This document shows positions 6,558 to 32,812 of a stretch of DNA of 64,000 nt, piece after piece. Location: assembly GCA_045612185.1 (NCBI GenBank), contig JAZKYO010000030.1, positions 18,506-82,505 of the forward strand, read 5' to 3'. The notes below the pieces were generated by a model. The model made no database searches and had not been told where the DNA came from. It saw only the letters and a program-made list of their open reading frames with translations. A program made the translations under genes and the position numbers. Every line of letters begins with the position of its first letter. Position 1 is the first letter of the stretch. The stretch is from Eubacteriales bacterium (GTDB lineage: Bacteria; Bacillota; Clostridia; Oscillospirales; CAG-272).

Positions 6558-6592
6558 ATAAAGCAGGTCAGCGAATGCCGACCTGCTTTTTA
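6558..6592. terminator. bidirectional terminator between htrA-like gene and sigF
   Basis: The 10-bp stem is aaagcaggtc/gacctgcttt. It is flanked by A-rich sequence on one side and T-rich sequence on the other. Confidence 0.75.
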
Positions 6593-7336
6593 TACTGCCA
6601 ATTCTTCTCTCAAAAAAGCCATTATCTTTTTTTCCTCGCGCGATACCTTGACCTGAGAAAGCCCGAGCTTTTCGGCGGTTTCCTGTTGTGTCATATCTTT
6701 ATAATATCGCAAAAGGATTATCTGCCGCCAGGTTGGCGGCATTTTTGATATTGCCTGGGTAAGTGCTATATGATCCGACATTCTTTCAATCTCGTTGTCT
6801 GTGTCTGCAATACGGCTCTCAAGCGTCATTGTGCTATCGTCAGAGCCAAGAGTTGATGACAGTGACATTACCGGAGAAATGGCGTCAAGGGCGATTGCGG
6901 CATCCTCCGGGCTCACGCCGCATATTTCCGCAAGCTCCTCTATTTTTGGCTCTCTGCCGTCGTCACCGACAATTTTATTACGGGCATTCATAAGCTCCAT
7001 ACCGAGTTTTTTATGATACCTGCTTATTTTTATCAGTCCGTCGTCACGGAGATGACGTCGTATCTCACCAATTATAAGCGGAACGGCATATGTTGAAAAG
7101 GTAGTTTCACGTTCAAGCTCAAAGCTTCTTATGGCTTTTATCATTCCGATTGTGCCAATTTGTATTAAGTCCTCCATATCTACACCTCGGTCCTTAAAAC
7201 GCATTGCGAGACTTCTGACCAGACCTATATTGATAGAAATAAGCTTTGCGGTTGCTTCTTGAGAGGCGCGCTCGTCACCGTTTTGAGCTATACTTATCAG
7301 CTCTCTGTTTCCCGAATATTTTTCACAAGATTGCAT
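6590..7336 (-). CDS. sigF: sporulation sigma factor SigF
   Basis: It has sigma-70 regions 2-4: 'DLIQIGTIGMIKAIRSF', 'FSTYAVPLIIGEIRRHLRDDGLIKISR' and an HTH 'TQQETAEKLGLSQVKVSREEKK'. It is the third gene after spoIIAA and spoIIAB. Confidence 0.85.
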   Translation of the reverse strand: MQSCEKYSGNRELISIAQNGDERASQEATAKLISINIGLVRSLAMRFKDRGVDMEDLIQIGTIGMIKAIRSFELERETTFSTYAVPLIIGEIRRHLRDDGLIKISRYHKKLGMELMNARNKIVGDDGREPKIEELAEICGVSPEDAAIALDAISPVMSLSSTLGSDDSTMTLESRIADTDNEIERMSDHIALTQAISKMPPTWRQIILLRYYKDMTQQETAEKLGLSQVKVSREEKKIMAFLREELAV

Positions 7337-12834: not shown

Positions 12835-12866
12835 AAATATTGCTCTCCTCTACAAGTATATTCATT

Positions 12867-12895
12867 ATTATAGCAGATTTTTATTTTAAAATCAA
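12867..12895 (-). promoter_or_regulatory. promoter of GH-like paralog 1
   Basis: Minus strand reads TTGATT-17-TATAAT. Confidence 0.5.
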
Positions 12896-12942
12896 TATCC
12901 TAAAGGCAATTTAACTTCTTTTGCAACGCAACCGCATAAAGG

Positions 12943-12970
12943 AATCCCCACGACAAAAGCCGTGGGGATT
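12943..12970 (-). terminator. hairpin after GH-like paralog 2
   Basis: aatccccacg-acaaaagc-cgtggggatt. The U-tract is weak. Confidence 0.5.
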
Positions 12971-12974
12971 AAAA

Positions 12975-15875: not shown

Positions 15876-15904
15876 ATTCTTTCCTCCAAAAATATACTTG
15901 TTTA

Positions 15905-15933
15905 ATTATACCATATAATGTTCTTTTTGTCTA
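15905..15933 (-). promoter_or_regulatory. promoter of GH-like paralog 2
   Basis: Minus strand reads TAGACA-17-TATAAT, in the -10 context GGTATAATTAAA. Confidence 0.5.
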
Positions 15934-15992
15934 TACTTTTTATACATTTCTCATAATTTCATAATTTTCCGCAATTAATCCTTAAAGACTGT

Positions 15993-16021
15993 AAAAAGCC
16001 CTCGGCATGCGTGCCGAGGGC
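15993..16021 (-). terminator. terminator of GH-like paralog 3
   Basis: gccctcggca-tgcg-tgccgagggc, followed by U5 on the minus strand. Confidence 0.8.
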
Positions 16022-16026
16022 TGATA

Positions 16027-18876: not shown

Positions 18877-18897
18877 AATTTGTCCTCTCATAATTAA

Positions 18898-21711
18898 TTA
18901 TCTGGCATCGAAGTACTCAATAATCGTGTATTTTTGATCATTAAGTTCTTTCATATAATCTGAAAGGTCGGTATATTCTGTTCCCTCGTTGGAGTACATA
19001 CCCTTATTTGAGTCTCTGTTTGAGGGGTCTGCGCCAGCGTCTGTTGGGTCATTATCCCAATACTTGAACCAGTCAAAGCCCGCGCATCCCTTACATTCCA
19101 TAAGCATAAGCGCGTAGTTCTGGTAGTACTTTCCGCGGTCATCCTGAGTTCTTACAGTCCAGCCCGCACCCGTCTTATTGACGATAAGAGGATTCTTTTC
19201 CCAAACGTCCATTCCCTTTGCGTACCATTCGGTAACTACGAAGGGAGTATCTCCAAGCCAGTTCTGAATATTTCTGAGAAGAGTGGGATCACCTTCCCAC
19301 GCACCGTAGTAGTTAAAGGTAACAACGTCGCACCAGTAGCCCGCAACACGCATAATGTACTCGCGTTTATAGTTGTTGTTTACAAAGCGGCAACCCATAT
19401 ACATATGATTGGGGTCGTACTTTTCAAGTGCCTTTGTTACAACTTCAAAATACTTATCATAGGTCATAGCAAGATACTCGTTACGAAGCTCGTCTGTAAT
19501 ATCCATCACAGACACGTCAGCTTTGCCGGTTTTGAGATACATAAATGTCCATGCGGTGGCGTAGGTATAAACACGTTTCACATCAGTAAAGTCAAGCGCA
19601 AGCGCATGGTCAAGCATATTAAGGTTATCGGCAAGCTCATTATCACTCATCCATCCGTAAACAGAAGGATTATTTACGTAGGGCTCTACCGCTTTCTTTA
19701 TATGACTATCCGCAAAGACTGCGAATTCGGGGTCAAATGAAGGTATTACGTCATCCTTGGGAAGTCTTGATCCTCCCGAGGAAACCTTAACACCTATATG
19801 CTTACCGTACTGAGTAGCCACATTGAATATCTGTGTCTGAGAAATAGGATTGTCGATACCCGAAAGAGTAGCGATATCCGACCATCCGCCCGCGGAATTG
19901 AAGCCAAGTTCAAAGAGTCTCTCGGTCGCTGCTACGCCCCAAGCGGCTTTTGTTCCATATTTAGCAAGTGTTATCTCCTTCTGTGCCGGAGATGAACCGT
20001 AAGCCACCTGAACTACCGAAACGCGGTAGAAGGGATAGCCGAGGGGGTCAATATTCCACCAACGATCGCCTATTTTCTTGGTATAGAAATAGCCTGTTGC
20101 CTTGTATTTTTCACCGCCCATATATCCACCGTACTCATCGTAGAGCTTTGTTTCCTTGGCATTAGCCTTAAAGCCTTTAAGGGTACTCAGATTTCTTGTG
20201 GGGTACTGAGAATAAACGGTACTTGCGCCGTTAGTCTTACCTGCGGTGGTAGCGTCTACCGTGATAGAATACTCCGCGGGATCTTTCACTATAAGCTCAG
20301 CATCTGTTCTGCCGTGACTCTTGATTTCTTCCCATCTTGCAAGCCACGTATTTACAGACGTCATAGCCACGTCCCAAGGATTCTCGCCTTTATATCTAAG
20401 CTTTGTAGTGAAGTTCAACTTACCGTAGTTAATTTCAAGACGGGGAGCTTTTCCGCCGACCTTTTCGGAGGAATCAATTCTTGTTCGGTACATAGAGGAT
20501 GTTTCTCCGTCGAGATAGAAGGAAATAACGTCATCTCCGCGTTTTATTGCCTGCTTTACGTAATCAGTTACATCTATGCGTTTTTCACCAGTGCCTACGA
20601 TGGAACAGCTTGTTATAAGTTCTTCTTTTTCGCACAAAGTATTGTACGTAACAGTTCCTTCATCCCAAGCGTAAGGATCACAGCCGAACACTTTTATTAC
20701 TCTTGCTTTATTCGGCTGTTCCATTTCAAAGACATTAAAGTAAATATACACCTTTGATATATCCTCTCTATTTATAGAAGAAACATCAAATTTAAGAAGA
20801 GTAATTCGGTAAGTAGAGATAGATTTTTCTGCGGGAGCCTTATGTTCAAGAACTTCGGAGCTGCCGAAATTCTTATCCACCGATGCGCCACCCTCTACAT
20901 AGGTATCCTCCAAAACGGGAACCATACCGACTTCAACAGTACTCCAACCAAGGAGTTTATCCAAACCGTTTTGAGATATTTCCGGTTCCGGAGTTTTTGT
21001 TTTACCGTTATAGATTGCTGTATCTACCTTTGTTCCGTAATATACGGAAAGTTTGGGGGCGTTCTCCCCCGCTTCTTTGGAAGCCCATCTTGTATGAAGC
21101 GCGACGCCAGCCGAAGCCTCTTTAAGATAAAAAGCTATTTCGCTTTGTCCGTTGGCAAGCGCTTTTCTTACATAATCTGTTATCGGGAAAGAATTTATCA
21201 CCTTATCCGCAGTAATATCGTTTTTAACGGTAATTACATCGAATATCTCAGGCTGTGTATTGAAGGTAAGATCAGACTCGGTCCACTCGGTACCTGCGCC
21301 ATACACCTCGATAGTCGCAAAGGGGGTTGCCGCGTCCTGCTGTCTTACAGTAAGCATAAGATCGAGCTCGATAGACGTAAAATCGTTATCTCCTTTAAGT
21401 GAGGATATGTCGAACTTAAGATATCCATAACGTGTAAGACTGTTACCGTTGGACTTTGTGTGTATCTCGACATCCGAGCCGTAATTGGTATCTTTAAGAT
21501 CGGTGTTGCCGTTTTTGTTCATAACGTATGAATCCTCCTTTACGGGGATAGTGTGGTCAAATCTCTCTACCGGTACGGGAGGCTCTGTTTCGGCCTGAGG
21601 TGTTTCGGGAGCATCCGTCACAACGGGAACCGTGGTATCGTCTCCCACAACCGAATTGCACGAGCTGAGCAACATAAGAGACGCCAGCAAAATCGCAAAA
21701 AATTTTTTCAT
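18898..21711 (-). CDS. lipoprotein: two DNRLRE/CBM96-like modules plus putative clan GH-A glycoside hydrolase domain (paralog 4 of 4)
   Basis: I moved the start to the ATG at 21711 ('MKKFFAIL', RBS AAAGGAAG). The lipobox is 'LLSSC'. Motifs are 'TRYGYLKFDISSL', 'TYRITLLKFDVSSI', 'GWMSDNELA' and 'FVVTEWYAKG'. Confidence 0.6.
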   Translation of the reverse strand: MKKFFAILLASLMLLSSCNSVVGDDTTVPVVTDAPETPQAETEPPVPVERFDHTIPVKEDSYVMNKNGNTDLKDTNYGSDVEIHTKSNGNSLTRYGYLKFDISSLKGDNDFTSIELDLMLTVRQQDAATPFATIEVYGAGTEWTESDLTFNTQPEIFDVITVKNDITADKVINSFPITDYVRKALANGQSEIAFYLKEASAGVALHTRWASKEAGENAPKLSVYYGTKVDTAIYNGKTKTPEPEISQNGLDKLLGWSTVEVGMVPVLEDTYVEGGASVDKNFGSSEVLEHKAPAEKSISTYRITLLKFDVSSINREDISKVYIYFNVFEMEQPNKARVIKVFGCDPYAWDEGTVTYNTLCEKEELITSCSIVGTGEKRIDVTDYVKQAIKRGDDVISFYLDGETSSMYRTRIDSSEKVGGKAPRLEINYGKLNFTTKLRYKGENPWDVAMTSVNTWLARWEEIKSHGRTDAELIVKDPAEYSITVDATTAGKTNGASTVYSQYPTRNLSTLKGFKANAKETKLYDEYGGYMGGEKYKATGYFYTKKIGDRWWNIDPLGYPFYRVSVVQVAYGSSPAQKEITLAKYGTKAAWGVAATERLFELGFNSAGGWSDIATLSGIDNPISQTQIFNVATQYGKHIGVKVSSGGSRLPKDDVIPSFDPEFAVFADSHIKKAVEPYVNNPSVYGWMSDNELADNLNMLDHALALDFTDVKRVYTYATAWTFMYLKTGKADVSVMDITDELRNEYLAMTYDKYFEVVTKALEKYDPNHMYMGCRFVNNNYKREYIMRVAGYWCDVVTFNYYGAWEGDPTLLRNIQNWLGDTPFVVTEWYAKGMDVWEKNPLIVNKTGAGWTVRTQDDRGKYYQNYALMLMECKGCAGFDWFKYWDNDPTDAGADPSNRDSNKGMYSNEGTEYTDLSDYMKELNDQKYTIIEYFDAR

Positions 21712-21755
21712 AATTTTCTTCCTTTCATTATAAATCATTATAAATATACATTTTA

Positions 21756-21905: not shown

Positions 21906-22673
21906 TTACTGTGCGGCGTCAACGATAGCCTTGAATTTTTCTGCCACGAGAGACGCGCCACCGATAAGTCCGCCATCAACGTTGGGCTTGGAAAGAAGCT
22001 CAGCGGCATTCTTATCGTTCATAGAACCGCCGTACTGAACGGTAACGGTTTCAGCAACGTCAGCACCGTAAGCCTCAGCGATAGCGGCACGGACAAATCC
22101 GTTACCCTCGTCTGCCTGATCAGCGGTAGCGGTAACGCCTGTACCGATAGCCCAAACGGGCTCATAAGCGATGATTACGTTCTTAAGCTGCTCTGCACTA
22201 ACGTTTGTAAGAGCCATCTTTGTCTGGAACTTAAGTAGAGTCTCGGTATATCCAAGCTCTCTCTGCTCAAGTGTTTCTCCAACACAAACGATAGCCTTAA
22301 GACCTGCGCCCAGAGCCGCAAGTGTACGAAGATTTACTGTCTGGTCGGTTTCAGCAAAGTACTGTCTTCTCTCGGAGTGACCGATAACGACGTACTCTAC
22401 ACCTGCTTCAACAAGCATTTCGGCAGAAATTTCGCCTGTGTAAGCACCCGAAGCCTTAAAATGAACGTTTTCAGCTCCGATCTTTATGTTCGAGCCCTTA
22501 GTTGCTTCGATCGCGGCGGGAATATCTATTGCGGGAACGCAAAGAACAACGTCGCACGCATCCTTACCTGCAACGAGGGGCTTCATCTCCTCAATAAGTG
22601 CGGTTGCGCTCTTGGGAGTCATATTCATTTTCCAGTTACCCGCGATAACTGTTCTTCTCTTAGAAGGATTCAT
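21906..22673 (-). CDS. tpiA: triose-phosphate isomerase
   Basis: Motifs are 'IAGNWKMN', 'IGHSERR' and 'IAYEPVWAIGTG'. It lies directly downstream of pgk. Confidence 0.95.
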   Translation of the reverse strand: MNPSKRRTVIAGNWKMNMTPKSATALIEEMKPLVAGKDACDVVLCVPAIDIPAAIEATKGSNIKIGAENVHFKASGAYTGEISAEMLVEAGVEYVVIGHSERRQYFAETDQTVNLRTLAALGAGLKAIVCVGETLEQRELGYTETLLKFQTKMALTNVSAEQLKNVIIAYEPVWAIGTGVTATADQADEGNGFVRAAIAEAYGADVAETVTVQYGGSMNDKNAAELLSKPNVDGGLIGGASLVAEKFKAIVDAAQ

Positions 22674-22734: not shown

Positions 22735-23934
22735 TTACTTGTCCTGAAGGCAAGCGATACCGGGAAGCTCAAGTCCTTCAAGGAACTCAAGAGAAGCACC
22801 GCCACCGGTGGAAATATGTGTGATCTTGGAAGCGTAGCCAAGCTGCTCGCAAGCTGCCGCGGAGTCTCCACCGCCTACGATAGTGATAGCCTCGGACTCT
22901 GCGAGAGCCTCAGCAACAGCGATTGTACCCTTTGCAAGAGTGGGGTTCTCAAACACGCCCATAGGACCGTTCCAAACAACGGTCTTAGCGCTCTTTGCGG
23001 CATCTGCGAAGAGCTTCTTTGTCTTATCACCGATATCAAGACCCATCTTATCAGCGGGAATCTCGTTTGAGGGAACTATCTCAACATCGATAGGAGCATC
23101 GATAGGATCGGGGAATGCCTTAGCAACAACTGTATCGATAGGAAGAAGAAGCTTTACGCCCTTCTCCTCAGCCTTAGCCATCATCTCACGGCAGTACTCA
23201 ACCTTTGTTTCGTCAAAGAGAGATGTACCGATGCCATATCCCTTAGCGGCAAGGAATGTATAAGCCATACCACCACCGATAATAAGAGTATCAACCTTTG
23301 TAAGGAGGTTGTTGATAACGTTAAGCTTATCGGAAACCTTTGCACCGCCGAGAATAGCAACGAAGGGACGCTCGGGATCAGCAAGAGCCTTACCCATAAC
23401 ACCGATTTCCTTCTGGATAAGGTAACCGCAAACAGCGGGAAGGTAATCTGCAACACCTGCTGTGGAAGCGTGTGCGCGGTGAGCCGCGCCAAACGCGTCG
23501 TTTACGAAAATGTCGGCAAGAGAAGCAAGCTCCTTAGCAAACTCGGGATCGTTCTTTTCTTCTCTCTTGTCAAAACGGGTATTCTCAAGAAGAACAGCCT
23601 GTCCTTCCTTAAGAGCGGCTGCCTTAGCCTTAGCGTCTGCGCCGATTGTGTCAGCCGCAAGCTCTACGGTCTGACCGAGAAGCTCAGTAAGTCTTGCCGC
23701 AACAGGTGCAAGAGAATACTTAGCAACAACTTCTCCCTTGGGCTTACCCATGTGAGAGCAAAGAATTACCTTTGCGCCCTTGGAAAGAAGGTACTTGATT
23801 GTGGGAAGTGCCTCAACGATTCTCTTATCGCTGGTGATTACGCCTTCCTTGAGAGGTACATTGAAGTCGCAACGAACAAGAACTCTCTTGCCGGCTACAT
23901 CAATATCTTCGATGTTTTTCTTATTGTAGGTCAT
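22735..23934 (-). CDS. pgk: phosphoglycerate kinase
   Basis: Motifs are '[12 protein letters not shown]', 'HMGKPKG' and 'GGGDS'. The length is 399 aa. Confidence 0.95.
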
Positions 23935-24055: not shown

Positions 24056-24086
24056 ACAAAAGAACGCCGCGCGTTGCGCGGCGTTC
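24056..24086 (-). terminator. terminator of lipoprotein paralog 1
   Basis: aacgccgcgc-gtt-gcgcggcgtt. Confidence 0.75.
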
Positions 24087-24101
24087 CAAATCATACTTTA
24101 A

Positions 24102-25118
24102 TTACTTAGCAACAGACATAAGGATCTCGTCGATATATGCCTCGAACTGACCCTGATCGTCAAAGAATCTTACAGAAGAATCTGTCTTGCCTGCAACAGA
24201 TGCGCCAAGCTTGCCTGTGCCTTCAGCGGTCTTACCGTCAAAGCCAACAAACTCAACCTTTACATCGCCCTTAGCAGGATCAACTACAACTGTAACCTTA
24301 TCCCAACCCTTATCGGAGAAGGCTGCAACTGCCTTATTGTTACCAACTGTGTAGATATCACCTACACCGTCAACTGTAAGAAGCTTATACTCTGTACCAC
24401 CGATTGTCCATGTAAGGAGATCAAGTGTGCCGGTAAGAGGATACTCATCAAACTTAGCCATAAAGGAAATTGTGAATGTCTTTGCAGCAAACGCATTGTT
24501 CTTATCTGTAAGCTCGAAGTAACCTGCGGGGTTGATTCCGCTATCACCTGTGGGAACGTTTGCATAGTTGTTGGTCTCTTCACCGTCAACGAAAGAAACA
24601 ACCTGAGTTGCGAATGCGCCCTTGTATGTAATGTCATTTGCAAACTTGTCCGCTACGTTCTTGATGTCAGCAACATCATCGAAAGACGTATAGAAGAAGG
24701 GGAACTCGATTGCGGAGTAATCAGCAACCTTTGTACCGTTAGCGTCCTCTACATACTCATCAGCACATACTGTGCAGAACTGCTTTGTGTAAGCGCCGTC
24801 TGTGCTCTTAAGAGGAGAGTACATATGAGCAGCGGGAATAACTTCGTCCCAAGTAAGGTTACAAGAACGGCAAACCATTGTGTACTTACCGTCTGTTGTA
24901 CAACTAGCCTCTACGCGGCTACCGGGAACTTCTCTGGTACGAGTGTGCTTGCACTCCTCTTCAGGCTCAGTATCTGTGCCCTGTGTGTCGGGGGCCTGTG
25001 TATCGGGAGCATCTGTAACATCAGGTGCCGTTGTGTCTGTTCCGCCACCGCAAGCTGCGAAAGCACAAACTACCATCACAAGTGCGATAACAAGCGCCAT
25101 AATCTTTGTGAATTTCAT
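24102..25118 (-). CDS. surface lipoprotein, His/Cys-module family (2 modules) plus beta-sandwich-like C-terminal domain (paralog 1 of 6)
   Basis: I moved the start to the ATG at 25118 ('MKFTKIMAL', RBS GGAGGAAG). The lipobox is 'AFAAC', followed by a T/D/P linker. The modules are 'CKHTRTREVPGSRVEASCTTDGKYTMVCRSCN' and 'HMYSPLKSTDGAYTKQFCTVCA'. The tail is 'AYIDEILMSVAK'. Confidence 0.55.
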   Translation of the reverse strand: MKFTKIMALVIALVMVVCAFAACGGGTDTTAPDVTDAPDTQAPDTQGTDTEPEEECKHTRTREVPGSRVEASCTTDGKYTMVCRSCNLTWDEVIPAAHMYSPLKSTDGAYTKQFCTVCADEYVEDANGTKVADYSAIEFPFFYTSFDDVADIKNVADKFANDITYKGAFATQVVSFVDGEETNNYANVPTGDSGINPAGYFELTDKNNAFAAKTFTISFMAKFDEYPLTGTLDLLTWTIGGTEYKLLTVDGVGDIYTVGNNKAVAAFSDKGWDKVTVVVDPAKGDVKVEFVGFDGKTAEGTGKLGASVAGKTDSSVRFFDDQGQFEAYIDEILMSVAK

Positions 25119-25206
25119 GATTCTTCCTCCAAAAATTAAAGAAATAATTTTGCATCTCCCAACCAAGCATAAATGTAGCTTTTTTGGGGTCAACACTTAT
25201 GCTAAT

Positions 25207-25235
25207 AATATATCACAAAAAGTTTTTTTTGTCAA
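25207..25235 (-). promoter_or_regulatory. promoter of His/Cys lipoprotein paralog 1
   Basis: Minus strand reads TTGACA-17-TATATT. Confidence 0.55.
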
Positions 25236-25333
25236 TAGTTTATACGAAAAGACATTTGCTTTTTTTGAAAGCTTATTTAATCTGTACAAAACCAAACAGC
25301 AAATACTATGCACTTTGACCATAATATCAAACG

Positions 25334-25363
25334 CAAAAAGGCGGCACCGTTACCGATGCCGCC
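25334..25363 (-). terminator. terminator of lipoprotein paralog 2
   Basis: ggcggca-ccgttaccga-tgccgcc, followed by U5. Confidence 0.7.
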
Positions 25364-25374
25364 AAATATGTTAT

Positions 25375-26472
25375 TTACTTAATCTCAACAAGCTTGAAAT
25401 TGTCGAAGTAAGGCATGGAAACACCGTTGGATTTAACGTCGAAGAAACGAAGTTCAAAGTTTCCATTGTACTTGGCATCGGAATGATTGGTGATATCCTT
25501 GGAACCAATACTTACACCGTCAATATAAACCGAAACCTTCCATGTGGAAGTATCTATGATACCGACACAGTTGTACCACTTTCCAATTTCGGCTTTTATG
25601 CTGTTGGCATCGTTATGACCTGCATCTTGAGTGGAAAGCACTCCGTCAGCCTCGTAATACTTAACGATCCAAGCATATGTAGAACGACCTCCAACAAACG
25701 AGAAGATAGACTCACCTCTGTGAGTAAGTCCCTGTGTAGTAAGCTTGAAATCAAAGCTTACAAGGAGCTTGGTATTAGTGGGAATAACCTCGGGGGCGTA
25801 CTTAAGCCAAAGCGCACCGTTAGTCTGCAATGCGCTGCCCTCATACTTCATGCCTTCAGGCTTGGTAACTGCAAAAGCGGGATAGTTTGCGAACTCAGCC
25901 TCGCTGTCAAAGTCAAGCTTGAGAATGGGGGCCTGCTCACCAAACTTAGCGGTCTGACCGCACTTTGTACAAGTGCTTGCCACGCCTTCCTTGGAAACGG
26001 AGATCTTAGTAAGGTCGTAAGCGTGAGCTGCCTTAACAACAGTCTCTTCCTTGCTTCCGCAACGGTAGCACTCGCTCTTTGCCAAGCCATCGGCTGTACA
26101 CGTTGCCTCTGTTATAACGGAATCAACAAAAAGGTGACCGTACTTTTCAACAAGGAGCTTTCCGCAAGTTGCGCAAACAGAATCCTCTGTGCAAGTAGCA
26201 TCCTTAGCATCGTGCATTGCGAAAGGAACGGGCATTTCGCTTCCCTCTTCAACTTCACCGCACTCACACTTCATAACCTTTTTACCGAGAGACGTACAAG
26301 TAGGTTCAAGCGTAACCGCCTCAACGTACGCATGAACATGGGTGGAAGGATTGTCATCAACTACGGGAGGATTGTCTCCGGCAGGAGCTGTGGTCTCGTT
26401 ACCGCTAGGGCCGCATGCAACTATTGCCAATGCCATAACAAGCACAAGAGCAAACAATAAAAACTTTTTCAT
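25375..26472 (-). CDS. surface lipoprotein, His/Cys-module family (4 modules) plus beta-sandwich-like C-terminal domain (paralog 2 of 6)
   Basis: The RBS is AAGGAG and the lipobox is 'AIVAC'. The modules are 'HVHAYVEAVTLEPTCTSLGKKVMKCECG', 'HDAKDATCTEDSVCATCG', 'HLFVDSVITEATCTADGLAKSECYRCG' and 'HAYDLTKISVSKEGVASTCTKCG'. The tail is 'YFDNFKLVEIK'. Confidence 0.55.
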   Translation of the reverse strand: MKKFLLFALVLVMALAIVACGPSGNETTAPAGDNPPVVDDNPSTHVHAYVEAVTLEPTCTSLGKKVMKCECGEVEEGSEMPVPFAMHDAKDATCTEDSVCATCGKLLVEKYGHLFVDSVITEATCTADGLAKSECYRCGSKEETVVKAAHAYDLTKISVSKEGVASTCTKCGQTAKFGEQAPILKLDFDSEAEFANYPAFAVTKPEGMKYEGSALQTNGALWLKYAPEVIPTNTKLLVSFDFKLTTQGLTHRGESIFSFVGGRSTYAWIVKYYEADGVLSTQDAGHNDANSIKAEIGKWYNCVGIIDTSTWKVSVYIDGVSIGSKDITNHSDAKYNGNFELRFFDVKSNGVSMPYFDNFKLVEIK

Positions 26473-26518
26473 AACAAATCTCCTTTAATGTATTTGCGTT
26501 AGCTATTTGTTTAAAAAC

Positions 26519-26547
26519 ATTTTAACATATCGAGGCAATTTTGTCAA
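26519..26547 (-). promoter_or_regulatory. promoter of His/Cys lipoprotein paralog 2
   Basis: Minus strand reads TTGACA-17-TAAAAT. Confidence 0.6.
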
Positions 26548-26595
26548 GTGTTTTTAAATCGAATTTTGACACCTTTATCTGTTTTGACTAAGGGG

Positions 26596-26625
26596 ACAAA
26601 AAACCGCCCCGCTAAAGCGAGGCGG
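26596..26625 (-). terminator. terminator of lipoprotein paralog 3
   Basis: ccgccccgc-taaa-gcgaggcgg with one mismatch, followed by U7. Confidence 0.7.
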
Positions 26626-26638
26626 CAAAAATTTTAGC

Positions 26639-27769
26639 TTACTTAAGAGCAGAAATTGTAAAGTTATCGATGATGTGACCGAAGGCAGGACCGTCACCAA
26701 ATCTGAAGCTCGCGTTCTTTTCAGCAAGTCCGCCTATATTTGCAGCCGGAATGCTCATACCGATATATGAACCGTTTACAAATACATGCGCGCCCTTAGT
26801 TGCGGGAGATACTACAAGCTGAATCTTATACTGAACATTACGCTCGAAAGATATACTATTGGCATCACTAAATTCCGCAGTTACCGTAGCTAATTTATCA
26901 TTATCCTCAATAGCCTTGATCATCCAACCCCAACCTATTGATCCAACACTTGTCTGAGCGCCGTTGAAGTGGTTGCTAAGGAGAGAGAATACAGATCCTG
27001 CGGAACCGGCAGCAGCTTCCTGGGTAGTAGCATAATCAAAGCTGATTACGAAAGTACCGAGAGCTGCAAGCTTTGCGGGATCGACGATGTTAATATATTC
27101 GGGCTTACCAGAATTAAGAATGAAAGCCTTAGATCCGTTAAAGTCGCCAATTTTCCATCCTTCCGGCTTATAAATCTCGAGGCCTATCTCGTTTGCCGCC
27201 TCAGCAGCAAGATCAGCGTCAAAAGTAAGGCTGAAAGCAGGAGCCTGAGCTGTAACAGTTACATTCTGACCGCAGATAGAGCAAGTGGTTGCGAATCCGC
27301 CGGCAGCGGCAGTAATAGCAGCGTCCTTAGCGGGAACGTGACCTGTTGCGGGAACATCCTTTTCAATCATCTTACCGCAGGTAAGGCAAGTACCGCTCTG
27401 CTTGCCGGGAGCGGAGCAGGTTGCTGCGTTAACGTCGTTATAGCTTGCGACTGTATGACCGGCAGCGGGAGTAAGTACTTCGTTACATACCGTACATACC
27501 GTATCCTTCTCGCAATCAGCTGCGGAAGGCTGATGGTCAGCAAAGCCAAGGGTTTCCTCAGACTGAACGTCGCCGCACTCACAAACGAGCTTCTTGGAGC
27601 CTGCTGTTGTGCAAGTGGGAGCCACGATGTCCTCTTCATAAACATGAACGTGTTCTGTTACCTCGTCTGTGGGAGGTGTTGTATCCTGGGGCTGTGTATC
27701 TCCGCCGCAAGCGACGAGAGCAAGTGCCAGCACAAGGATTGTGAGAGTGATTAAAAGCTTTTTAATCAT
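26639..27769 (-). CDS. surface lipoprotein, His/Cys-module family (4 modules) plus beta-sandwich-like C-terminal domain (paralog 3 of 6)
   Basis: The RBS is AAGGAG and the lipobox is 'ALVAC'. The modules are 'HVHVYEEDIVAPTCTTAGSKKLVCECG', 'HQPSAADCEKDTVCTVCN', 'HTVASYNDVNAATCSAPGKQSGTCLTCG' and 'HVPAKDAAITAAAGGFATTCSICG'. The tail is 'HIIDNFTISALK'. Confidence 0.55.
   Translation of the reverse strand: MIKKLLITLTILVLALALVACGGDTQPQDTTPPTDEVTEHVHVYEEDIVAPTCTTAGSKKLVCECGDVQSEETLGFADHQPSAADCEKDTVCTVCNEVLTPAAGHTVASYNDVNAATCSAPGKQSGTCLTCGKMIEKDVPATGHVPAKDAAITAAAGGFATTCSICGQNVTVTAQAPAFSLTFDADLAAEAANEIGLEIYKPEGWKIGDFNGSKAFILNSGKPEYINIVDPAKLAALGTFVISFDYATTQEAAAGSAGSVFSLLSNHFNGAQTSVGSIGWGWMIKAIEDNDKLATVTAEFSDANSISFERNVQYKIQLVVSPATKGAHVFVNGSYIGMSIPAANIGGLAEKNASFRFGDGPAFGHIIDNFTISALK
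27561..27769 (-). repeat. 209-nt 5' gene segment nearly identical to 28897..29105
   Basis: A gap-free hand alignment of the 5' ends of paralogs 3 and 4 gives 18 mismatches in 209 nt by my count. This is far more similar than the 3' halves of the genes. Confidence 0.75.
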
Positions 27770-27822
27770 TGGTAATTTCTCCTTAAAAATTTTATTTTGG
27801 GAATTATATCATCCACCTCATC

Positions 27823-27851
27823 ATTTTATCACGCTAAAGTGAATTTGTCAA
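27823..27851 (-). promoter_or_regulatory. promoter of His/Cys lipoprotein paralog 3
   Basis: Minus strand reads TTGACA-17-TAAAAT. Confidence 0.6.
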
Positions 27852-27920
27852 CCCAAAAAGGGATTCCGACACAAATTTCGTCAACTAACTCCAAACTCAA
27901 ATCGATTTTTTTGTGCAATA

Positions 27921-27952
27921 TAAACAAACCGCCCGACATTAGTCGGGCGGTT
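27921..27952 (-). terminator. terminator of lipoprotein paralog 4
   Basis: aaccgcccgac-atta-gtcgggcggtt. Confidence 0.75.
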
Positions 27953-27965
27953 ATAATCCAATTGA

Positions 27966-29105
27966 TTACTTGAGTGCCGAAATTGTGAAGTTATCAAACA
28001 CCTGAACGCATGCGGGTCCGTCTCCAAAGCGGAAGGTCATAGTACCGTCAGCAGTGCCTGCAAGAGCTATTCCCTGCTTTGCGTCACCAATATACTGTCC
28101 GTTGACGAAAACTTGCTTTGATGTCGAATTTGCATCCATTATAATCTGAACTTTATACTTAACGTTTTCCTTGAGGACAAAGCTGTTGGAAGCATTTGTA
28201 TCGGTAGAGTTTACGGTAGCGATAGCGGAATTGTTTGCTATAAGCTTAGCCGCCCAACCCCACTTGGTTTCATTTTGGGTTTTAAGATTTTTACCATCAT
28301 AAAAATTGCCAAGAACCGAGAACACAGAAGCTCTGGCATCTGCCACAACTTTAGTAACCATATAGTCAAAGCTTACAACGAATGTTCCAAGCTCCTCAAA
28401 GGGCTTAGCAGAAGGAATGTTGACGTAGTATACCTTTTGGGGACCTTCAGACAAAAGAGCCTTGCTTCCGTCCATTTCGGTCACTGCCCAATTTTGGGGC
28501 TTTATGGGAACCAACCCAAGAGCGTTGCCGCTCATTTCGGTTTCTACGTCTGCCTCAAAAGTAAGGTTAACAATGGGAGCCTGAGCCTTGAGCGTTACAG
28601 TCTGACCGCAAGAACCGCACAAAAGAGTAAATCCGTCTGCAACCGCTGTAGGCGTGCTTCCGGCAGCGGGAACATGTCCTGTTTTAGGAATATCCGTCTC
28701 AACTCTTTTACCGCATGTAAGGCAAGTGCTGACAGCTTTTCCTGTAGTGGAGCAGCTTGCAGCCGTAACAATTATCTGGTCGGTCATAGTATGTCCCGCT
28801 GCGGGAGCCATAACCGTGTTACAAACCGTACAAACGGTATCCTTTTCACAGTCGGGCGCAGAGGGGGTGTGATCAAGAATTCCGATAACTTCATCGGACT
28901 GAACGTCACCGCACTCACAAACGAGCTTCTTGGAGCCTGCTGTTGTACAAGTGGGAGCTACGATGTCCTCTTCATAAACATGAACGTGCTCGGTCACTTC
29001 ATCTGTGGGAGGTGTTGTATCCTGGGGCTGTGTATCTCCGCCGCAAGAGACGAGAGCAAGCGCAAGCACAAGAATAGCGAGTGTAATTAAAAACTTTCTA
29101 ATCAT
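27966..29105 (-). CDS. surface lipoprotein, His/Cys-module family (4 modules) plus beta-sandwich-like C-terminal domain (paralog 4 of 6)
   Basis: I chose the ATG at 29105, which sits 9 nt after AAGGAG. The track start at 29111 is a TTG. The lipobox is 'ALVSC'. The N-terminal ~70 aa are nearly identical to paralog 3. The tail is 'VFDNFTISALK'. It begins 29 nt after the paralog 5 stop with no terminator between them. Confidence 0.55.
   Translation of the reverse strand: MIRKFLITLAILVLALALVSCGGDTQPQDTTPPTDEVTEHVHVYEEDIVAPTCTTAGSKKLVCECGDVQSDEVIGILDHTPSAPDCEKDTVCTVCNTVMAPAAGHTMTDQIIVTAASCSTTGKAVSTCLTCGKRVETDIPKTGHVPAAGSTPTAVADGFTLLCGSCGQTVTLKAQAPIVNLTFEADVETEMSGNALGLVPIKPQNWAVTEMDGSKALLSEGPQKVYYVNIPSAKPFEELGTFVVSFDYMVTKVVADARASVFSVLGNFYDGKNLKTQNETKWGWAAKLIANNSAIATVNSTDTNASNSFVLKENVKYKVQIIMDANSTSKQVFVNGQYIGDAKQGIALAGTADGTMTFRFGDGPACVQVFDNFTISALK
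28897..29105 (-). repeat. 209-nt 5' gene segment nearly identical to 27561..27769
   Basis: This is the partner copy of the repeat at 27561..27769. Confidence 0.75.
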
Positions 29106-29134
29106 AGTCAAAAACTCCTTTAAAAATATATTTA

Positions 29135-30262
29135 TTATTTAAGGTCAGCAATAACAAAGTTATCAAATATTTGTCCGCACTTGGGACCGTCACCGAATCT
29201 GATGGTGAGGTTTTCCTGTCCCATAATAGAAAGTGTGGGAATTTCGGAGCAAATACCGATATAAGTTCCGTCAACGAACATATGAGCAACTCTCGCTGTG
29301 GGAACTATAACAGCCTGAATCTTATAATTCTTATTACGCTCGATAGCGATGCTGGTAGTATCGTTAATCTTATCAGCCTCTTTCTTGGTAGCAATCACGT
29401 CAAACTTTTCAACGAGCTTAACAAGCCATCCCCAAGCGGTGCTTCCCTTGGCGGTCTGAGCACCATTGTAGAAGTTGCCAAGGAAGGACACAATAGATGC
29501 TGCGTCACTCTCAGCGCCCTCTGCAGTACTCATATAATCAAAGCTTAAAAGGAAGGTTCCAAGTGCAGCCAGCTTATCGGCATCAGATATGTTCAAGTAT
29601 GCGATGTCGCTGTTTCCGTTAACTTTAAGCACGCCGTCAGACACTTTCCAAACCTCGGGCTTAAAAACTGTAATACCGATATCATTCTTGGCATCGGTTT
29701 CGATATCTTCTTCAAAGGTAAGTTCAAACACGGGGGCCTGAGCCTTAAGCACTACCGACTGTCCGCAAGAAGCGCAAGTGATAGCGAAGCCGTCGGCGGC
29801 TACGGTAATCGCACCGTCCTTGGCAAGAATATGCCCGGTTGCCGGAATTTCGTTTTCTACGATTTTTCCACAATTAAGGCACGCGCCCTTTTCTTTTCCC
29901 GCTGCGAAGCAAGTAGCTTCGGAAACGATTTCCTTGTCACCGAAGATATGACCGGTTGCGGTGGTAAGTACTTCGTTACATACGACACACACCGTGTCCT
30001 TTTCGCAATCAACGACTGAAGGCGTATGATCTACAACCCCGAGAACATTTTCGGACTGCACATCACCGCACTCGCAAACCAATTTCACGGATCCCTCAGA
30101 TGTGCAAGTGGAAGCAACAATCACCTCACTGTAAATATGAACGTGCTCAGTTACCTCATCGGCAGGGGGCGTGGTATCATCAACAACAGGCGGAGTAGGA
30201 CCGCAAGCTATGAGAATAAACGCCACTACCACAACAACAATAATTGACAAAACTTTTGACAT
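29135..30262 (-). CDS. surface lipoprotein, His/Cys-module family (4 modules) plus beta-sandwich-like C-terminal domain (paralog 5 of 6)
   Basis: I moved the start to the ATG at 30262 ('MSKVLSII', RBS AAGGAGG). The longer track ORF would run through the predicted promoter. The lipobox is 'ILIAC'. The modules include 'HVHIYSEVIVASTCTSEGSVKLVCECG' and 'HTPSVVDCEKDTVCVVCN'. The tail is 'IFDNFVIADLK'. Confidence 0.55.
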   Translation of the reverse strand: MSKVLSIIVVVVVAFILIACGPTPPVVDDTTPPADEVTEHVHIYSEVIVASTCTSEGSVKLVCECGDVQSENVLGVVDHTPSVVDCEKDTVCVVCNEVLTTATGHIFGDKEIVSEATCFAAGKEKGACLNCGKIVENEIPATGHILAKDGAITVAADGFAITCASCGQSVVLKAQAPVFELTFEEDIETDAKNDIGITVFKPEVWKVSDGVLKVNGNSDIAYLNISDADKLAALGTFLLSFDYMSTAEGAESDAASIVSFLGNFYNGAQTAKGSTAWGWLVKLVEKFDVIATKKEADKINDTTSIAIERNKNYKIQAVIVPTARVAHMFVDGTYIGICSEIPTLSIMGQENLTIRFGDGPKCGQIFDNFVIADLK

Positions 30263-30308
30263 AATGACAACCTCCTTAATAAATATTTGTATCATTGAAG
30301 ACAAATAA

Positions 30309-30337
30309 ATTTTATCACCAAAAAAGCTTTTTGTCAA
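30309..30337 (-). promoter_or_regulatory. promoter of His/Cys lipoprotein paralogs 5 and 4
   Basis: Minus strand reads TTGACA-17-TAAAAT. Confidence 0.6.
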
Positions 30338-30409
30338 CTGTCACGCGGTCAAAAAATCCTTTTTGTGAAAACAGCACAACAAACCCTTTTGTTTTTTGTA
30401 CAACACTTC

Positions 30410-30441
30410 AAAAAAATTCCCGAGCGCGTACACACTCGGGA
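30410..30441 (-). terminator. terminator of lipoprotein paralog 6
   Basis: tcccgag-cgcgtacaca-ctcggga, followed by U7. Confidence 0.7.
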
Positions 30442-30452
30442 GCAAAACAATA

Positions 30453-31451
30453 TCACTTTTTGAAGGTAAGACCACTGGGAACCACAAACTCAGGGGCGTC
30501 GGCAACGTACGCTTTGAGGTTATCTGCCAAAGCCGCAAATCCCACCTTACGGTCAAAATATCGGATATACGACTTAGAAACATCTGCGGGAGGAACAATA
30601 TACACCACGTCCTTACGCTCAAGCTTTTCGTCAACGTACACGTCGGCAAGTCCCGCGGTTGGGTTATATACTATGGTAATATTATTGTATCCCTTATTTT
30701 TCAGCTTCACCGAAAGCGGCTCTTTGCTTCCGCTTACGTAAAGAGAACCATCGGTTCCGACAAGCACGATTCCGCTGTTATAGGTTTCTTTACCTTTTGA
30801 ATTGCGGTAAGACACCGAAAAAAGATTAAGCGTTTCTCTTGGGTAGCTCTCAAACATTACGTCCATAGAGACAACTATTTTTTTACTGGTAATACTTCTT
30901 GTATTCTCCCAAACGCAATAGTTACATTCGTGAACGTAAATATAGTTACCGTCCACGTTGCTCCTTATCTCAACGTCACCCTTGGTTTTGTCGGCGGAAG
31001 AAATAGTATAGTACTCAAGATTCTTTTGAGCGTTGGTAGCGTCTTTTACCGAATCAAATCCCTCATAGGTCATATTGAAAAGATAGCTTTGAAGCTTTAC
31101 TATCTTATAATCGCCGCAAAGCGAGCAAGTTTTTTTCACGTATTTTCCCGTAGAATCCTTTACTTCGACGTACTTATGGGCAGACGGAATGAGATTTCTG
31201 TAAGTTATTCCGCACTCACATCCGTATTCCTCGAAACCCTCGTCAACGCAAGTACCAGCCACGGTATTTATCACCTTATAGTCGTGGACGTGGGGTGGCT
31301 CGGTTTCCTCAGGTTCTTCAGGTTCTGTCTCCATGGGCTCGGTTGAAATGCCGCTCTCCTCGGGCAAGGTTGTTTCTTCACCGTTTCCGCAAGAAACAAT
31401 TACAATACTCAATATCAATATCGTCAGTACAAGAAACAGTTTTAGCTTCAT
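30453..31451 (-). CDS. surface lipoprotein, His/Cys-module family (2 modules) plus beta-sandwich-like C-terminal domain (paralog 6 of 6, most divergent)
   Basis: I moved the start to the ATG at 31451 ('MKLKLFLVL', RBS GGAGG). The lipobox is 'VIVSC', followed by an E/P/T linker. The modules are 'HVHDYKVINTVAGTCVDEGFEEYGCECG' and 'HKYVEVKDSTGKYVKKTCSLCG'. The tail is 'ALADNLKAYVAD'. Confidence 0.5.
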   Translation of the reverse strand: MKLKLFLVLTILILSIVIVSCGNGEETTLPEESGISTEPMETEPEEPEETEPPHVHDYKVINTVAGTCVDEGFEEYGCECGITYRNLIPSAHKYVEVKDSTGKYVKKTCSLCGDYKIVKLQSYLFNMTYEGFDSVKDATNAQKNLEYYTISSADKTKGDVEIRSNVDGNYIYVHECNYCVWENTRSITSKKIVVSMDVMFESYPRETLNLFSVSYRNSKGKETYNSGIVLVGTDGSLYVSGSKEPLSVKLKNKGYNNITIVYNPTAGLADVYVDEKLERKDVVYIVPPADVSKSYIRYFDRKVGFAALADNLKAYVADAPEFVVPSGLTFKK

Positions 31452-31481: not shown

Positions 31482-31510
31482 ATTATAACACATCAAATTA
31501 AAGTTGTCAA
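31482..31510 (-). promoter_or_regulatory. promoter of His/Cys lipoprotein paralog 6
   Basis: Minus strand reads TTGACA-17-TATAAT. Confidence 0.6.
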
Positions 31511-31549: not shown

Positions 31550-32752
31550 TTACTTGCTTTCAGCCATAAATCTGTCAAGCTCGGGATTTTCGGAGAAGTG
31601 TTTAAGCATTACGATAGGCTCGGTTGCGGAGGTATTGGTAATTACAACGCCTTCCTTTGCCGCTTTTTCGGTTACGAAATACTCGTCGTTTGTAAGCTCT
31701 CCGTATCTTATAAGAGTAGGAGTTTCAAGTGTCCAGCTGTTCATAGTTCCGTGTCCCTGAAGCAGGATAAGACCGTAAGCCGCCTCGTCCTTTATCGTCA
31801 CGCTTGCGCCGGGAGCAACGGTAAGGCGCTTTGCGGAAGCGAGCTTGCACTTATAGCATATCCACTCCTCGGTGTAATTCTCGTCCGAATGGATAACCGC
31901 GGGCTTCATAAAGCGGTTCTTTTTGAAGTCGGGGTCGGTATTTGCCTCCCAATCGATAACGTCCATAAGATAGTCGAAGTTGCCCTTCTCCTCCTCGGGG
32001 CAGTTTTTCCACAGAAGGTCCTCGGAAACGCACTCGCCGCCGTAAAGCACCGACTGATACATAGCGTACACGTCGCTGGCGAACTGTGGCTCATAGGTAC
32101 AAAGGCTTGCGGGAGCGTGAAGCACTCCGGGAGGAACGTCCCATCCTGTGTCAAGCGTGATTTTATAAGCCTGAGAAAGGTCAAGGAGTTTATTGTCGCC
32201 CTTTGTGAAGTTTACAAGGCACTCGCGCACCTCCTCCTTAGTAGCATCGGGATTAAGTCCGAAGAATGTAAAAGGAAACGTTCCGCCATGGTTATTGCAC
32301 TGCGACGGGAAGAAATACATTTCGGGCTTTCCGTCCGCGCCTACGCGCTTGGCGTGTTCGTTGCGGTGATGTATATGATGCGGAAGCGGTCCTTTATTAT
32401 CGAAGAACTTAGAGAACATAGGCCACTTGCCATACTTATTCCAAAGGTATTCGCCTACAATTTCAGACTTAAGCTCTTCAACCATATCGCGCAAAAGCAT
32501 TCTCTCTTTTCCGTCCGCGCTGACAACGTAGCTAAGCCCCTCGTCATCGGGGGTTTCGGGTCCGTTTTCGGCATGAGTGGTGGAGGCAAACCATCTTTCA
32601 TCTATTCCTCCGCGCTCAAGTCCGAGAATATAATAATCATCGGGATGAAGCTTTATTCTTCTTCCCGGGATACAGAAAGCTCTTGGAACCCACACAGGCG
32701 CGAGTCTGAGTATTCCCTTGCCCTCTTCAAGTAATTTTTTAGCCAATTCCAT
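31550..32752 (-). CDS. cupin-fold protein resembling type I phosphomannose isomerase-like sugar isomerases
   Basis: 'GGIDERWFASTTH', 'SKFFDNKGPLPHHIHH' and 'YEPQFASDVYAMY' resemble the PMI type I patterns (ExW..s.H; K.L....LS.Q.HP; E.Q..SD.TYR). The ATG at 32752 has no clear SD and directly abuts a hairpin plus U-tract. The alternative GTG at 32764 lies inside that hairpin. Confidence 0.45.
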   Translation of the reverse strand: MELAKKLLEEGKGILRLAPVWVPRAFCIPGRRIKLHPDDYYILGLERGGIDERWFASTTHAENGPETPDDEGLSYVVSADGKERMLLRDMVEELKSEIVGEYLWNKYGKWPMFSKFFDNKGPLPHHIHHRNEHAKRVGADGKPEMYFFPSQCNNHGGTFPFTFFGLNPDATKEEVRECLVNFTKGDNKLLDLSQAYKITLDTGWDVPPGVLHAPASLCTYEPQFASDVYAMYQSVLYGGECVSEDLLWKNCPEEEKGNFDYLMDVIDWEANTDPDFKKNRFMKPAVIHSDENYTEEWICYKCKLASAKRLTVAPGASVTIKDEAAYGLILLQGHGTMNSWTLETPTLIRYGELTNDEYFVTEKAAKEGVVITNTSATEPIVMLKHFSENPELDRFMAESK

Positions 32753-32812
32753 ATAAAAAAGCACCGTCCTTTCTTTTTGTTACTTTTATTGTAACACGAA
32801 GGCGGTGCTTTT
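32751..32812 (-). terminator. long hairpin plus U6 after the AraC gene, abutting the cupin start codon
   Basis: The outer stem (32757-32771 with 32799-32812) has 14 bp and one bulge. The inner hairpin is gttac-ttttatt-gtaac. The U-run ends 2 nt before the ATG at 32752. Confidence 0.7.

Follow-up and report, generated by a model that had tools for sequence, protein, structure and literature searches.

The nearest described relatives of the proteins considered here are two rod segments of an IgA protease from Thomasclavelia ramosa, called ZBD1 and ZBD2 in one report of 2025 (PMC12237041) and CTD2 and CTD4 in another of the same year (PMC12415215). In AlphaFold3 models of this protease, Cys/His residues form putative tetrahedral zinc sites where its three-stranded subdomains meet (PMC12237041). 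Small-angle X-ray scattering showed CTD2 to be a fully extended rod, for which 'an uncharacterized periscope domain fold' was proposed, a periscope being a spacer (PMC12415215), and the rod domains are dispensable for catalysis (PMC12237041, PMC12415215). We analysed a 64-kb stretch of DNA from an Eubacteriales bacterium (64,000 nucleotides of contig JAZKYO010000030.1, assembly GCA_045612185.1; hereafter the window), in which six consecutive minus-strand open reading frames (ORFs) at 24102-31451, here G1 to G6, encode lipoproteins with a short stalk of repeated His/Cys modules and a C-terminal head. Sequence comparison shows the module to be a homologue of the rod domains of the IgA protease, which are predicted to bind zinc. 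On balance, we favour the view that the six genes encode stalked lipid-anchored binders, in which a metal-stapled rod carries a concanavalin A-like (ConA-like) head whose ligand is most likely a carbohydrate.

The homology was found with a profile of 41 positions, built from 37 modules that include those of the window. Among PDB sequences this profile matched one entry, 9qa6 (the T. ramosa IgA protease, chain 9qa6_A), in three stretches at E=2.2e-12. In addition, the stalk profile of the window family was collinear with ZBD1 at E=0.011, and in this alignment an HxH start, a TCTTAG turn and CxxC knuckles are common to both. Predicted strings of three-stranded up-and-down sheets with putative Cys/His sites at subdomain interfaces, an extended-rod shape (predicted here) and an extracellular protein of a gut Firmicute are further likenesses (PMC12237041, PMC12415215). 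However, most sites of the IgA protease are His2Cys2, with the first Cys replaced (ATATTAG), whereas the window proteins are mostly canonical Cys3His. Moreover, the rods of the protease lie C-terminal to a metzincin (M64) protease and before a sortase anchor, whereas here they follow a lipid anchor and carry a ConA-like head.

Two other known systems invite comparison. Periscope proteins and fibrillar adhesins, such as SasG/Aap with their G5-E repeats, are likewise anchored at the surface, with a functional domain at the far end of a long rod whose small repeated beta units lack a classical hydrophobic core, and the same comparison has been drawn for the IgA-protease domains (PMC12415215). The window stalks are nevertheless short (two or four units) and share no sequence relationship with known stalk domains such as G5 or Ig-like ones, and they are anchored by lipid instead of sortase/LPXTG. 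In Aap, zinc mediates dimerisation, whereas here rigidity is proposed to come from intramolecular Cys/His metal sites. Classical zinc ribbons (the C-terminal domain of TFIIS, RPA12, the N-terminus of NrdR) and rubredoxin knuckles share the three-stranded antiparallel sheet and a CxxCG knuckle at a hairpin turn, and a distant resemblance of the IgA-protease domains to TFIIS has been remarked (PMC12237041). Whereas classical ribbons have two knuckles per ~30-40 aa, a window module has one CxxC, a lone Cys and a lone His, and its site is proposed to be completed across modules; the window proteins are also extracellular. Matches to ribbons were non-significant by sequence (E>=0.045) and by fold (E>=0.5), and Pfam zinc-ribbon models stayed below their cut-offs at E>=0.0027.

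Distribution of the module

The module is by no means confined to these genes. Searched against 1.84 billion cluster representatives (50% identity), the module profile matched 72,677 proteins at E<=1e-3, 43,400 at <=1e-10 and 14,344 at <=1e-30. The matches include proteins of 7,000 aa, with up to 91 matched stretches in one protein. Among giant module-built proteins (P0064-P0213), P0069 has 91 matched stretches in 4,548 aa and P0082 has 81 in 7,583 aa, and many of them alternate two repeat subtypes, one of the form H-x-W-G-x-W and one that begins H-x-Y and continues with PTCTE-x-GYT. Partner domains in smaller module proteins are Peptidase_S8, CAP, Big_2, SLH, cohesin and FecR. The weaker matches of a search with G3 likewise share the modules only, which there form long tandem arrays and are combined with membrane anchors or with domains of the SLH, cohesin, FecR or CAP type.

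Annotation of this repeat is nearly absent. Pfam-A and NCBIfam scans of the six proteins returned no model for the whole protein and no confident full-length family match, and scans of 13 other repeat-rich proteins, including ones with 20-40 copies, gave no credible module match; the original prediction that no family could be named thus stands for these two collections, for protein and module alike. The repeat proteins that we checked are named 'hypothetical protein' at NCBI. A homologue search with the 41-column module alignment retrieved 15 short proteins only, none of them named, and a phmmer search of PDB sequences with G3 retrieved nothing. Full-text literature searches gave no description of the repeat, and the link to the IgA protease came only through the PDB sequence match. 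The module is therefore already noticed in the literature, but only as a prediction in one protein: where the two papers describe the rod domains, they treat the fold as specific to that protein and give no wide repeat family and no end-of-array ligand rule (PMC12237041, PMC12415215). Hence the whole-protein family is unannotated and the module lacks a curated model in Pfam-A and NCBIfam, while both parts are of recognised kinds, a ConA-like fold and a rod like the ZBD/periscope domains of the IgA protease.

A scan of viral contigs with P0192 gave no confirmed relative. A tblastn search with another repeat protein, P0057, gave repeat-region matches in a few unannotated gut 'phage' contigs, such as MT835477.1 (84,755 bp) and MT835476.1 (113,916 bp), which are 'Bacteriophage sp.' entries of GenBank from human faeces and in which the matched regions may be phage genes or cellular DNA; the other matches of this search concerned the SLH part.

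Proposed metal sites along the stalk

The six translations agree with the architecture first described for them, namely a lipobox signal, a T/P/D/E linker, two or four His/Cys modules and a C-terminal domain of ~200 aa. All six N-termini have a K/R-rich basic region, a hydrophobic stretch and a lipobox followed by G (FAAC, IVAC, LVAC, LVSC, LIAC and IVSC, with the Cys at residue 20-23). We took a basic N-region, a hydrophobic region and [LVI][ASTVI][GAS]C in the first ~25 residues as the mark of a lipoprotein, and all six carry it; the lipobox Cys is invariant among relatives in both alignments described below. The linker was disordered in the AlphaFold2 model of G3 (pLDDT <50, residues 22-37). 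Each of G2-G5 carries three full modules of the form H-x(5-18)-C-x(4-12)-C-x(1-2)-C followed by a terminal H...CxxC module; in G1 and G6 a single full module precedes the terminal one. Among the real genes of the window only these six have more than one such module, since the double matches in two out-of-frame ORFs overlap on a single Cys cluster.

A search with G3 returned ~54 full-length relatives with 30-70% identity, all from metagenomes or metagenome-assembled genomes (MAGs) and none with a functional name. A search with G1 returned 37 further relatives of the two-module type, and the two with a source name are both 'hypothetical protein'. The genome matches were faecal or caecal 'Eubacteriales/Clostridia bacterium' MAGs, and the organism of the window therefore appears to be a gut anaerobe. 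Across 53 aligned G3-like relatives, C53, C63, C65, C86, C92, C95, C118, C128, C131, C163, C166, H42 and H105 are invariant, and H40, H79 and H144 are more than 90% conserved. Across 26 G1-like relatives, H58, C73, C83, C86, H98, C115 and C118 are invariant down to 37% identity. The substitutions in ligand columns of both alignments are His/Cys swaps, with one Cys at 40 and one at 79, and P0266 shows HxH instead of the CxH of the other G1-type proteins. At position 144 two sequences seem to lack the ligand, but each has a His close by, within a few residues, and we read them as alignment shifts. The Cys/His pattern was thus retained throughout the 53 and 26 relatives, and because the stalk Cys and His are near-invariant and exchange only with each other, they behave in these alignments as metal ligands. 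The stalk of one member of the family, P0053 (448 aa), contains an inserted fifth module, so module number can change within the family; in its module 2, Cys replaces the junction His.

As was noted at first, the module region is more conserved than the C-terminal domain. Between paralogs, identity in the stalk exceeds that in the head (68% vs 44% for G3/G4, 64% vs 47% for G3/G5, 39% vs 30% for G2/G3), and column entropy is 1.21 in the stalk and 1.71 in the head, with 1.91 in head loops and up to 2.56 in one loop stretch.

DSSP assignments on AlphaFold2 models (pLDDT 90) gave three strands per full module and no helices, and a model of the stalk alone was all beta at pLDDT 90.1. The order in the models is His, beta1, a turn with the first Cys, beta2 ending in the CxxC knuckle, beta3 and the next His, and each module is thus predicted to be a three-stranded antiparallel up-and-down beta-sheet. 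In a sheet of this kind the entry His and the CxxC turn share one end, and the turn with the first Cys lies at the exit, beside the His of the next module. From this topology, and from the statistics of array ends given below, we infer that each site is probably shared by neighbours, with the first Cys of module i-1 joined by the junction His and the CxxC of module i. The scheme covers every conserved ligand, and ligand counts are exactly 4n (16 in G2-G5, 8 in G1 and G6).

For the individual stalks, all on the minus strand, the following sites are proposed. In G3 (stalk at 27272-27652) they would be (H40, H42, C63, C65), (C53, H79, C92, C95), (C86, H105, C128, C131) and (C118, H144, C163, C166), and the 16 ligand positions of G4 (28608-28988) and G5 (29765-30145) are identical to those of G3. 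The ligands of G2 (25960-26340) are H45, H47, C59, C69, C71, H87, C94, C100, C103, H113, C125, C135, C138, H150, C168 and C171, 16 in number and compatible with four sites. Two putative sites each are assigned to G1 (24765-24953), as (C56, H58, C83, C86) and (C73, H98, C115, C118), and to G6 (31116-31292), as (H54, H56, C78, C80) and (C68, H92, C109, C112). G6 also has an H-E-C-N-Y-C motif inside its head (residues 174-179); its ortholog in the related locus L001 has ANCC there, and as the His is not conserved, the motif is probably not a metal site.

Site sharing makes a statement about the ends of arrays, which we examined in 5,434 modules of 159 other repeat proteins. The first Cys is present in only 10 of 123 terminal modules (8%) but in 4,884 of 5,311 modules elsewhere (92%, p=3e-105), and an extra His or Cys at +/-2 of the junction His occurs in 64 of 117 initial modules (55%) vs 305 of 5,317 elsewhere (5.7%, p=3e-45); as these proteins were picked by similarity to the canonical-module profile, internal regularity is inflated in these counts, whereas the direction of the end effects should be unaffected. 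If sites are shared between modules, it follows that the last module has CxxC only and that the first has HxH or CxH. The retention of CxxC alone in the last module, already seen in the first description, is borne out by the ligand positions and by these statistics. A self-contained HC3 site in each module was considered and rejected, since the last module would then have three ligands, the first His of HxH would go unexplained, and the pattern at array ends is not predicted. The earlier picture of Zn-knuckle modules with one His and three Cys therefore holds in that these residues behave as metal ligands, but the modules are probably not self-contained. The metal would most likely be Zn2+ in tetrahedral coordination.

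The Cys residues might instead form disulfides, the modules then being EGF-like disulfide-knotted spacers in which the His are structural or incidental. The proteins are extracellular and Cys-rich, as this would need, and AlphaFold2 models contain no metals and cannot discriminate between the two. We nonetheless regard disulfides as improbable: a full module has three Cys and the stalk of mature G3 has 11, an odd number; the His are conserved as strictly as the Cys, and the two are swapped for each other; ligand counts at array ends fit four-ligand sites; and the organism is apparently a gut anaerobe, as judged from its faecal and caecal MAG relatives. Moreover, the published description of the homologous IgA-protease domains states that no disulfides were seen and that reducing agent improved monodispersity (PMC12237041).

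The metal itself could also be the point, with the arrays acting as extracellular buffers or stores of zinc or another metal, or as sensing switches, and the head being secondary. The repeat is extremely abundant, with up to 91 copies per protein, and regulation by environmental zinc has been speculated for the IgA protease (PMC12415215). However, fully Cys/His tetrahedral sites are typical of tight structural zinc and not of exchangeable stores, each of the six proteins has only 2-4 sites and always ends in a conserved folded head, and a zinc-uptake or Zur-type gene is absent beside the array in the window and in two related loci (L004 and L005). This role is accordingly barely likely for the six proteins, and that of a rigid stalk, rather than of a ligand-binding part, is the likely one for the module. 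ZBD1 measures ~110 A with its three units (PMC12237041), and by analogy a rod of two to four units would have a length of roughly 7-14 nm.

Two further metal-related functions were discarded. Neighbouring metal centres would be ~35 A apart by comparison with ZBD1 (PMC12237041), which speaks against an electron-transfer chain. No CxxC knuckle of the six proteins precedes a His, which confirms the reported absence of the CxxCH haem motif; haem binding and a multihaem c-type cytochrome were rejected on this ground.

A wider proposal can be made for the module, which we put forward tentatively and regard as rather doubtful: that it is among the largest bacterial extracellular metal-binding repeat families without a Pfam-A or NCBIfam model (>70,000 clusters at 50% identity, up to ~90 copies), with a previously undescribed 'interleaved' design in which each zinc staples two consecutive mini-sheets.

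The head and its ligand

The C-terminal domain of ~200 aa, which ends in (F/I)D(N/E)(F/I/L)...K, had been expected to be strand-rich and similar to LamG or concanavalin folds, and structure prediction supports this. The AlphaFold2 model of G3, made with an alignment of 53 sequences, has a mean pLDDT of 90.4, and its head gave 174 Foldseek matches in the PDB at E<=0.001, with probability 1.0. The top matches (E=6e-7 to 1e-4) are lectin-like domains of bacterial and trypanosomal sialidases, the binding fragment of tetanus and botulinum toxins, the carbohydrate-recognition domain of Emp46p, legume lectins and CBM66. In sequence searches, G2 matched Laminin_G_3 (PF13385) at E=1.4e-5 and 25.7 bits, under the gathering threshold of 27.6 bits, and the other five window proteins had no match to this model at E<=1. 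Further sub-threshold matches were to Sialidase-like_CBM, Glyco_hydro_2_N and the C-terminal domain of Trans-sialidase (TS_C). As modelled, the head is a divergent ConA-like/LamG jelly roll. It shares with the Laminin_G_3/ConA-like superfamily the jelly-roll form, LamG_3-like core motifs and a final strand (F/I)D(N/E)(F/I/L), but five of the six window proteins and 49 of 53 relatives have no match at E<0.01, and ligand-binding residues are not transferable.

Taking stalk and head together, we propose the following mechanism. The lipobox Cys would be lipidated and tether the protein at the outer face of the cytoplasmic membrane. After the disordered T/P/D/E linker, two (G1, G6) or four (G2-G5) mini-sheets may stack end to end into a thin rod, kept rigid at every junction by a single metal ion in tetrahedral coordination, most likely Zn2+. 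The ligands of a site would be the first Cys of module i-1, in its top turn, and the opening His and CxxC/CxC of module i, in its bottom turn. The first site, which has no preceding module, would take its second ligand from two residues before the His (HxH, or CxH in G1), and the last module, which has no following site, would have lost its first Cys. Rod and flexible linker would then hold the ConA-like head off the membrane, into or through the wall, where its variable loops would contact an extracellular ligand, with a carbohydrate as the most likely candidate. The paralogs, in three subtypes each with orthologs, would offer different specificities. Carbohydrate binding is suggested because the fold relatives are mostly lectin or carbohydrate-binding-module (CBM) domains, and several specificities because loops are variable and paralogs are maintained.

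Several points weigh against this reading. The zinc sites of the IgA-protease domains are, like those of the window proteins, predictions. In a Foldseek search of the PDB, the model of the stalk alone found nothing better than E=0.5, with zinc ribbons of NrdR and RPA12 as weak leaders. Only 4 of 53 family members reach E<0.01 with Laminin_G_3, and the regularity within the 159 repeat proteins is inflated by their selection, as stated above. The argument for glycans comes from similarity of predicted fold alone, and ConA-like/LamG domains may also bind proteins or lipids, while some are enzymes. Finally, the array has no constant neighbour that is informative of function, such as a transporter or a glycoside hydrolase; the conserved neighbours are the housekeeping genes pgk and tpiA.

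LamG domains of laminins and neurexins bind proteins too. With the same anatomy, the heads could thus be adhesins or protein binders for host proteins, other bacteria or phage, with host or phage pressure, and not nutrient glycans, behind the diversification of the paralogs. This is a less likely reading, but one that deserves some weight: the Foldseek matches include ConA-like/LamG domains from the binding fragments of neurotoxins, a carbohydrate-utilisation gene is not consistently adjacent, and fibrillar adhesins and periscope proteins are built in the same stalk-plus-head form (PMC12415215). Furthermore, the only studied protein with such a stalk is a protease that acts on a host protein (PMC12237041, PMC12415215). 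On the other side, carbohydrate-binding modules and lectins make up most of the top fold matches, and the promoters lack invertible or phase-variable elements. The orthologs of each paralog are also well conserved (58-72% identity), which speaks against the rapid turnover of an arms race.

A stalk-displayed enzyme, for instance a GH16-like glucanase or a polysaccharide lyase, is a very improbable identity for the head. The ConA-like lectin/glucanase superfamily does include glycoside hydrolases and lyases, some of the weak matches were on domains associated with glycoside hydrolases, and there are a few conserved acidic or polar residues (D245, D359, D368, N369, R356). These residues, however, belong to the LamG_3-type core motifs VxxNG.YIG, RFGDG and FDNF, not to a cleft motif of the ExDxxE kind. 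In structure, the best matches are to lectin or CBM domains, the non-catalytic parts of larger enzymes, and Pfam models of glycoside hydrolases (GH) or polysaccharide lyases (PL) were unmatched.

The locus, its transcription and its wider meaning

The array was correctly recognised at first as six minus-strand paralogs of common architecture with 332-379 aa, and our corrected sizes agree. The longest ORFs of G1, G5 and G6 begin upstream of or inside promoter-like sites, so downstream Met codons were taken as starts; for all genes the start was placed at the downstream Met after the promoter-like site, and sizes refer to the corrected products. On this basis G1 lies at 24102-25118 (338 aa), G2 at 25375-26472 (365 aa), G3, the paralog modelled with AlphaFold2, at 26639-27769 (376 aa), G4 at 27966-29105 (379 aa), G5 at 29135-30262 (375 aa) and G6, whose head is divergent, at 30453-31451 (332 aa).

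Promoter-like sites of the near-consensus extended -10 type, with TTGACA, a 17-nt spacer, TAAAAT or TATAAT and TG before the -10, lie on the minus strand upstream of G6 (31482-31510), G5 (30309-30337), G3 (27823-27851), G2 (26519-26547) and G1 (25207-25235), one per transcription unit. The G6 site (TTGACA and TATAAT) has 12 of 12 matches and the other four have 11 of 12. Three of the five are alike beyond the hexamers (repeat family D7). Terminator-like hairpins with a T-run, also on the minus strand, follow G1 (24061-24087), G2 (25340-25363), G3 (26603-26626), G4 (27927-27952) and G6 (30418-30441). Five of the six genes thus have their own promoter-like site, and five their own terminator. 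G4 starts only 29 bp past the stop of G5 with neither promoter nor terminator signal between, and because of this short gap without its own promoter it is probably co-transcribed with G5, whose promoter would serve both. With five promoters of near-consensus type and five terminators, the genes appear to be expressed strongly and, for the most part, independently of each other. Flanking inverted repeats were sought around the array promoters and none were found, so that phase variation through invertible promoters was rejected.

The array is immediately upstream of pgk (22735-23934) and tpiA (21906-22673). Downstream of tpiA are four large paralogous minus-strand genes (10594-21738; 746, 966, 954 and 946 aa), each with one or two CBM96/DNRLRE domains and the first with a lipoprotein-like N-terminus; no catalytic Pfam domain was detected in the four proteins. 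On the other side, a 404-aa protein (31550-32764, minus strand), earlier called a PMI-like cupin, had no Pfam or NCBIfam match, and a protein of ~400 aa has the same position beside a PocR-AraC regulator in the related loci L001 and L005. The original prediction placed the array between a GH-like lipoprotein array and the cupin with PocR-AraC; the latter regulator is indeed on that side, but the array is not directly beside the CBM96/DNRLRE genes, since tpiA and pgk intervene. A partnership with these genes was likewise proposed and finds no support: pgk and tpiA separate the two arrays, and in L004, the one annotated relative compared for this linkage (six paralogs), no CBM96 gene lies within 10 kb. 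An ABC-transporter solute-binding role was also rejected, as the six proteins matched no solute-binding family in Pfam or NCBIfam and no transporter genes flank the array here, in L004 or in L005.

Four related loci from MAGs or metagenome contigs were compared. L001 has five paralogs and flanks as in the window, L003 has two, L004 has six with genes for a PfkB kinase, an aldolase and a lyxose-isomerase-type cupin upstream, and L005 has at least four, with the PocR-AraC regulator and the 400-aa protein, and ends before the pgk-tpiA point. The array is directly upstream of pgk-tpiA in L001, L003 and L004. Since the position is constant and the four loci hold between 2 and 6 copies, the array occupies a stable slot in the chromosome, one that grows and shrinks. 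Positional orthologs were found for G1 (72% identity in L001, 69% in L003), G6 (65% in L001), G2 (58% in L001) and G3 (60%), and the three subtypes (G1; G6; G2 with G3-5) are therefore old and individually maintained. G1 is the most conserved paralog and adjoins pgk in the relatives examined, and the change in copy number is located in the G3-5 group. G3 and G4 have 90% identical signal peptides and linkers, and 82% nucleotide identity over the first ~300 nt.

A gene for a SigF/SigG-type sporulation sigma factor (6590-7336, minus strand; score below the equivalog cut-offs) points to an endospore-forming Firmicute as the organism.

The main interest of the array is in the size of the unmodelled repeat family and in a site-sharing rule that can be tested. 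Boundaries, ligand set and sharing rule together give a testable definition of a common gut-Firmicute repeat, sufficient for a domain model and for annotating tens of thousands of 'hypothetical' surface proteins. The fold has only been predicted, in the two papers of 2025 (PMC12237041, PMC12415215), and the six lipoproteins, with two or four modules and one head, are among the smallest natural contexts seen for the repeat and are suited to a first structural and metal analysis. In addition, three conserved lectin-like head subtypes, apparently strongly expressed, offer a lead to the surface ligands of an uncultured lineage. If the interleaved design is true, many surface proteins of Clostridia, these six among them, would depend on available zinc for their length and stiffness, and the surface display, adhesion and nutrient capture of gut anaerobes would be tied to host zinc sequestration.

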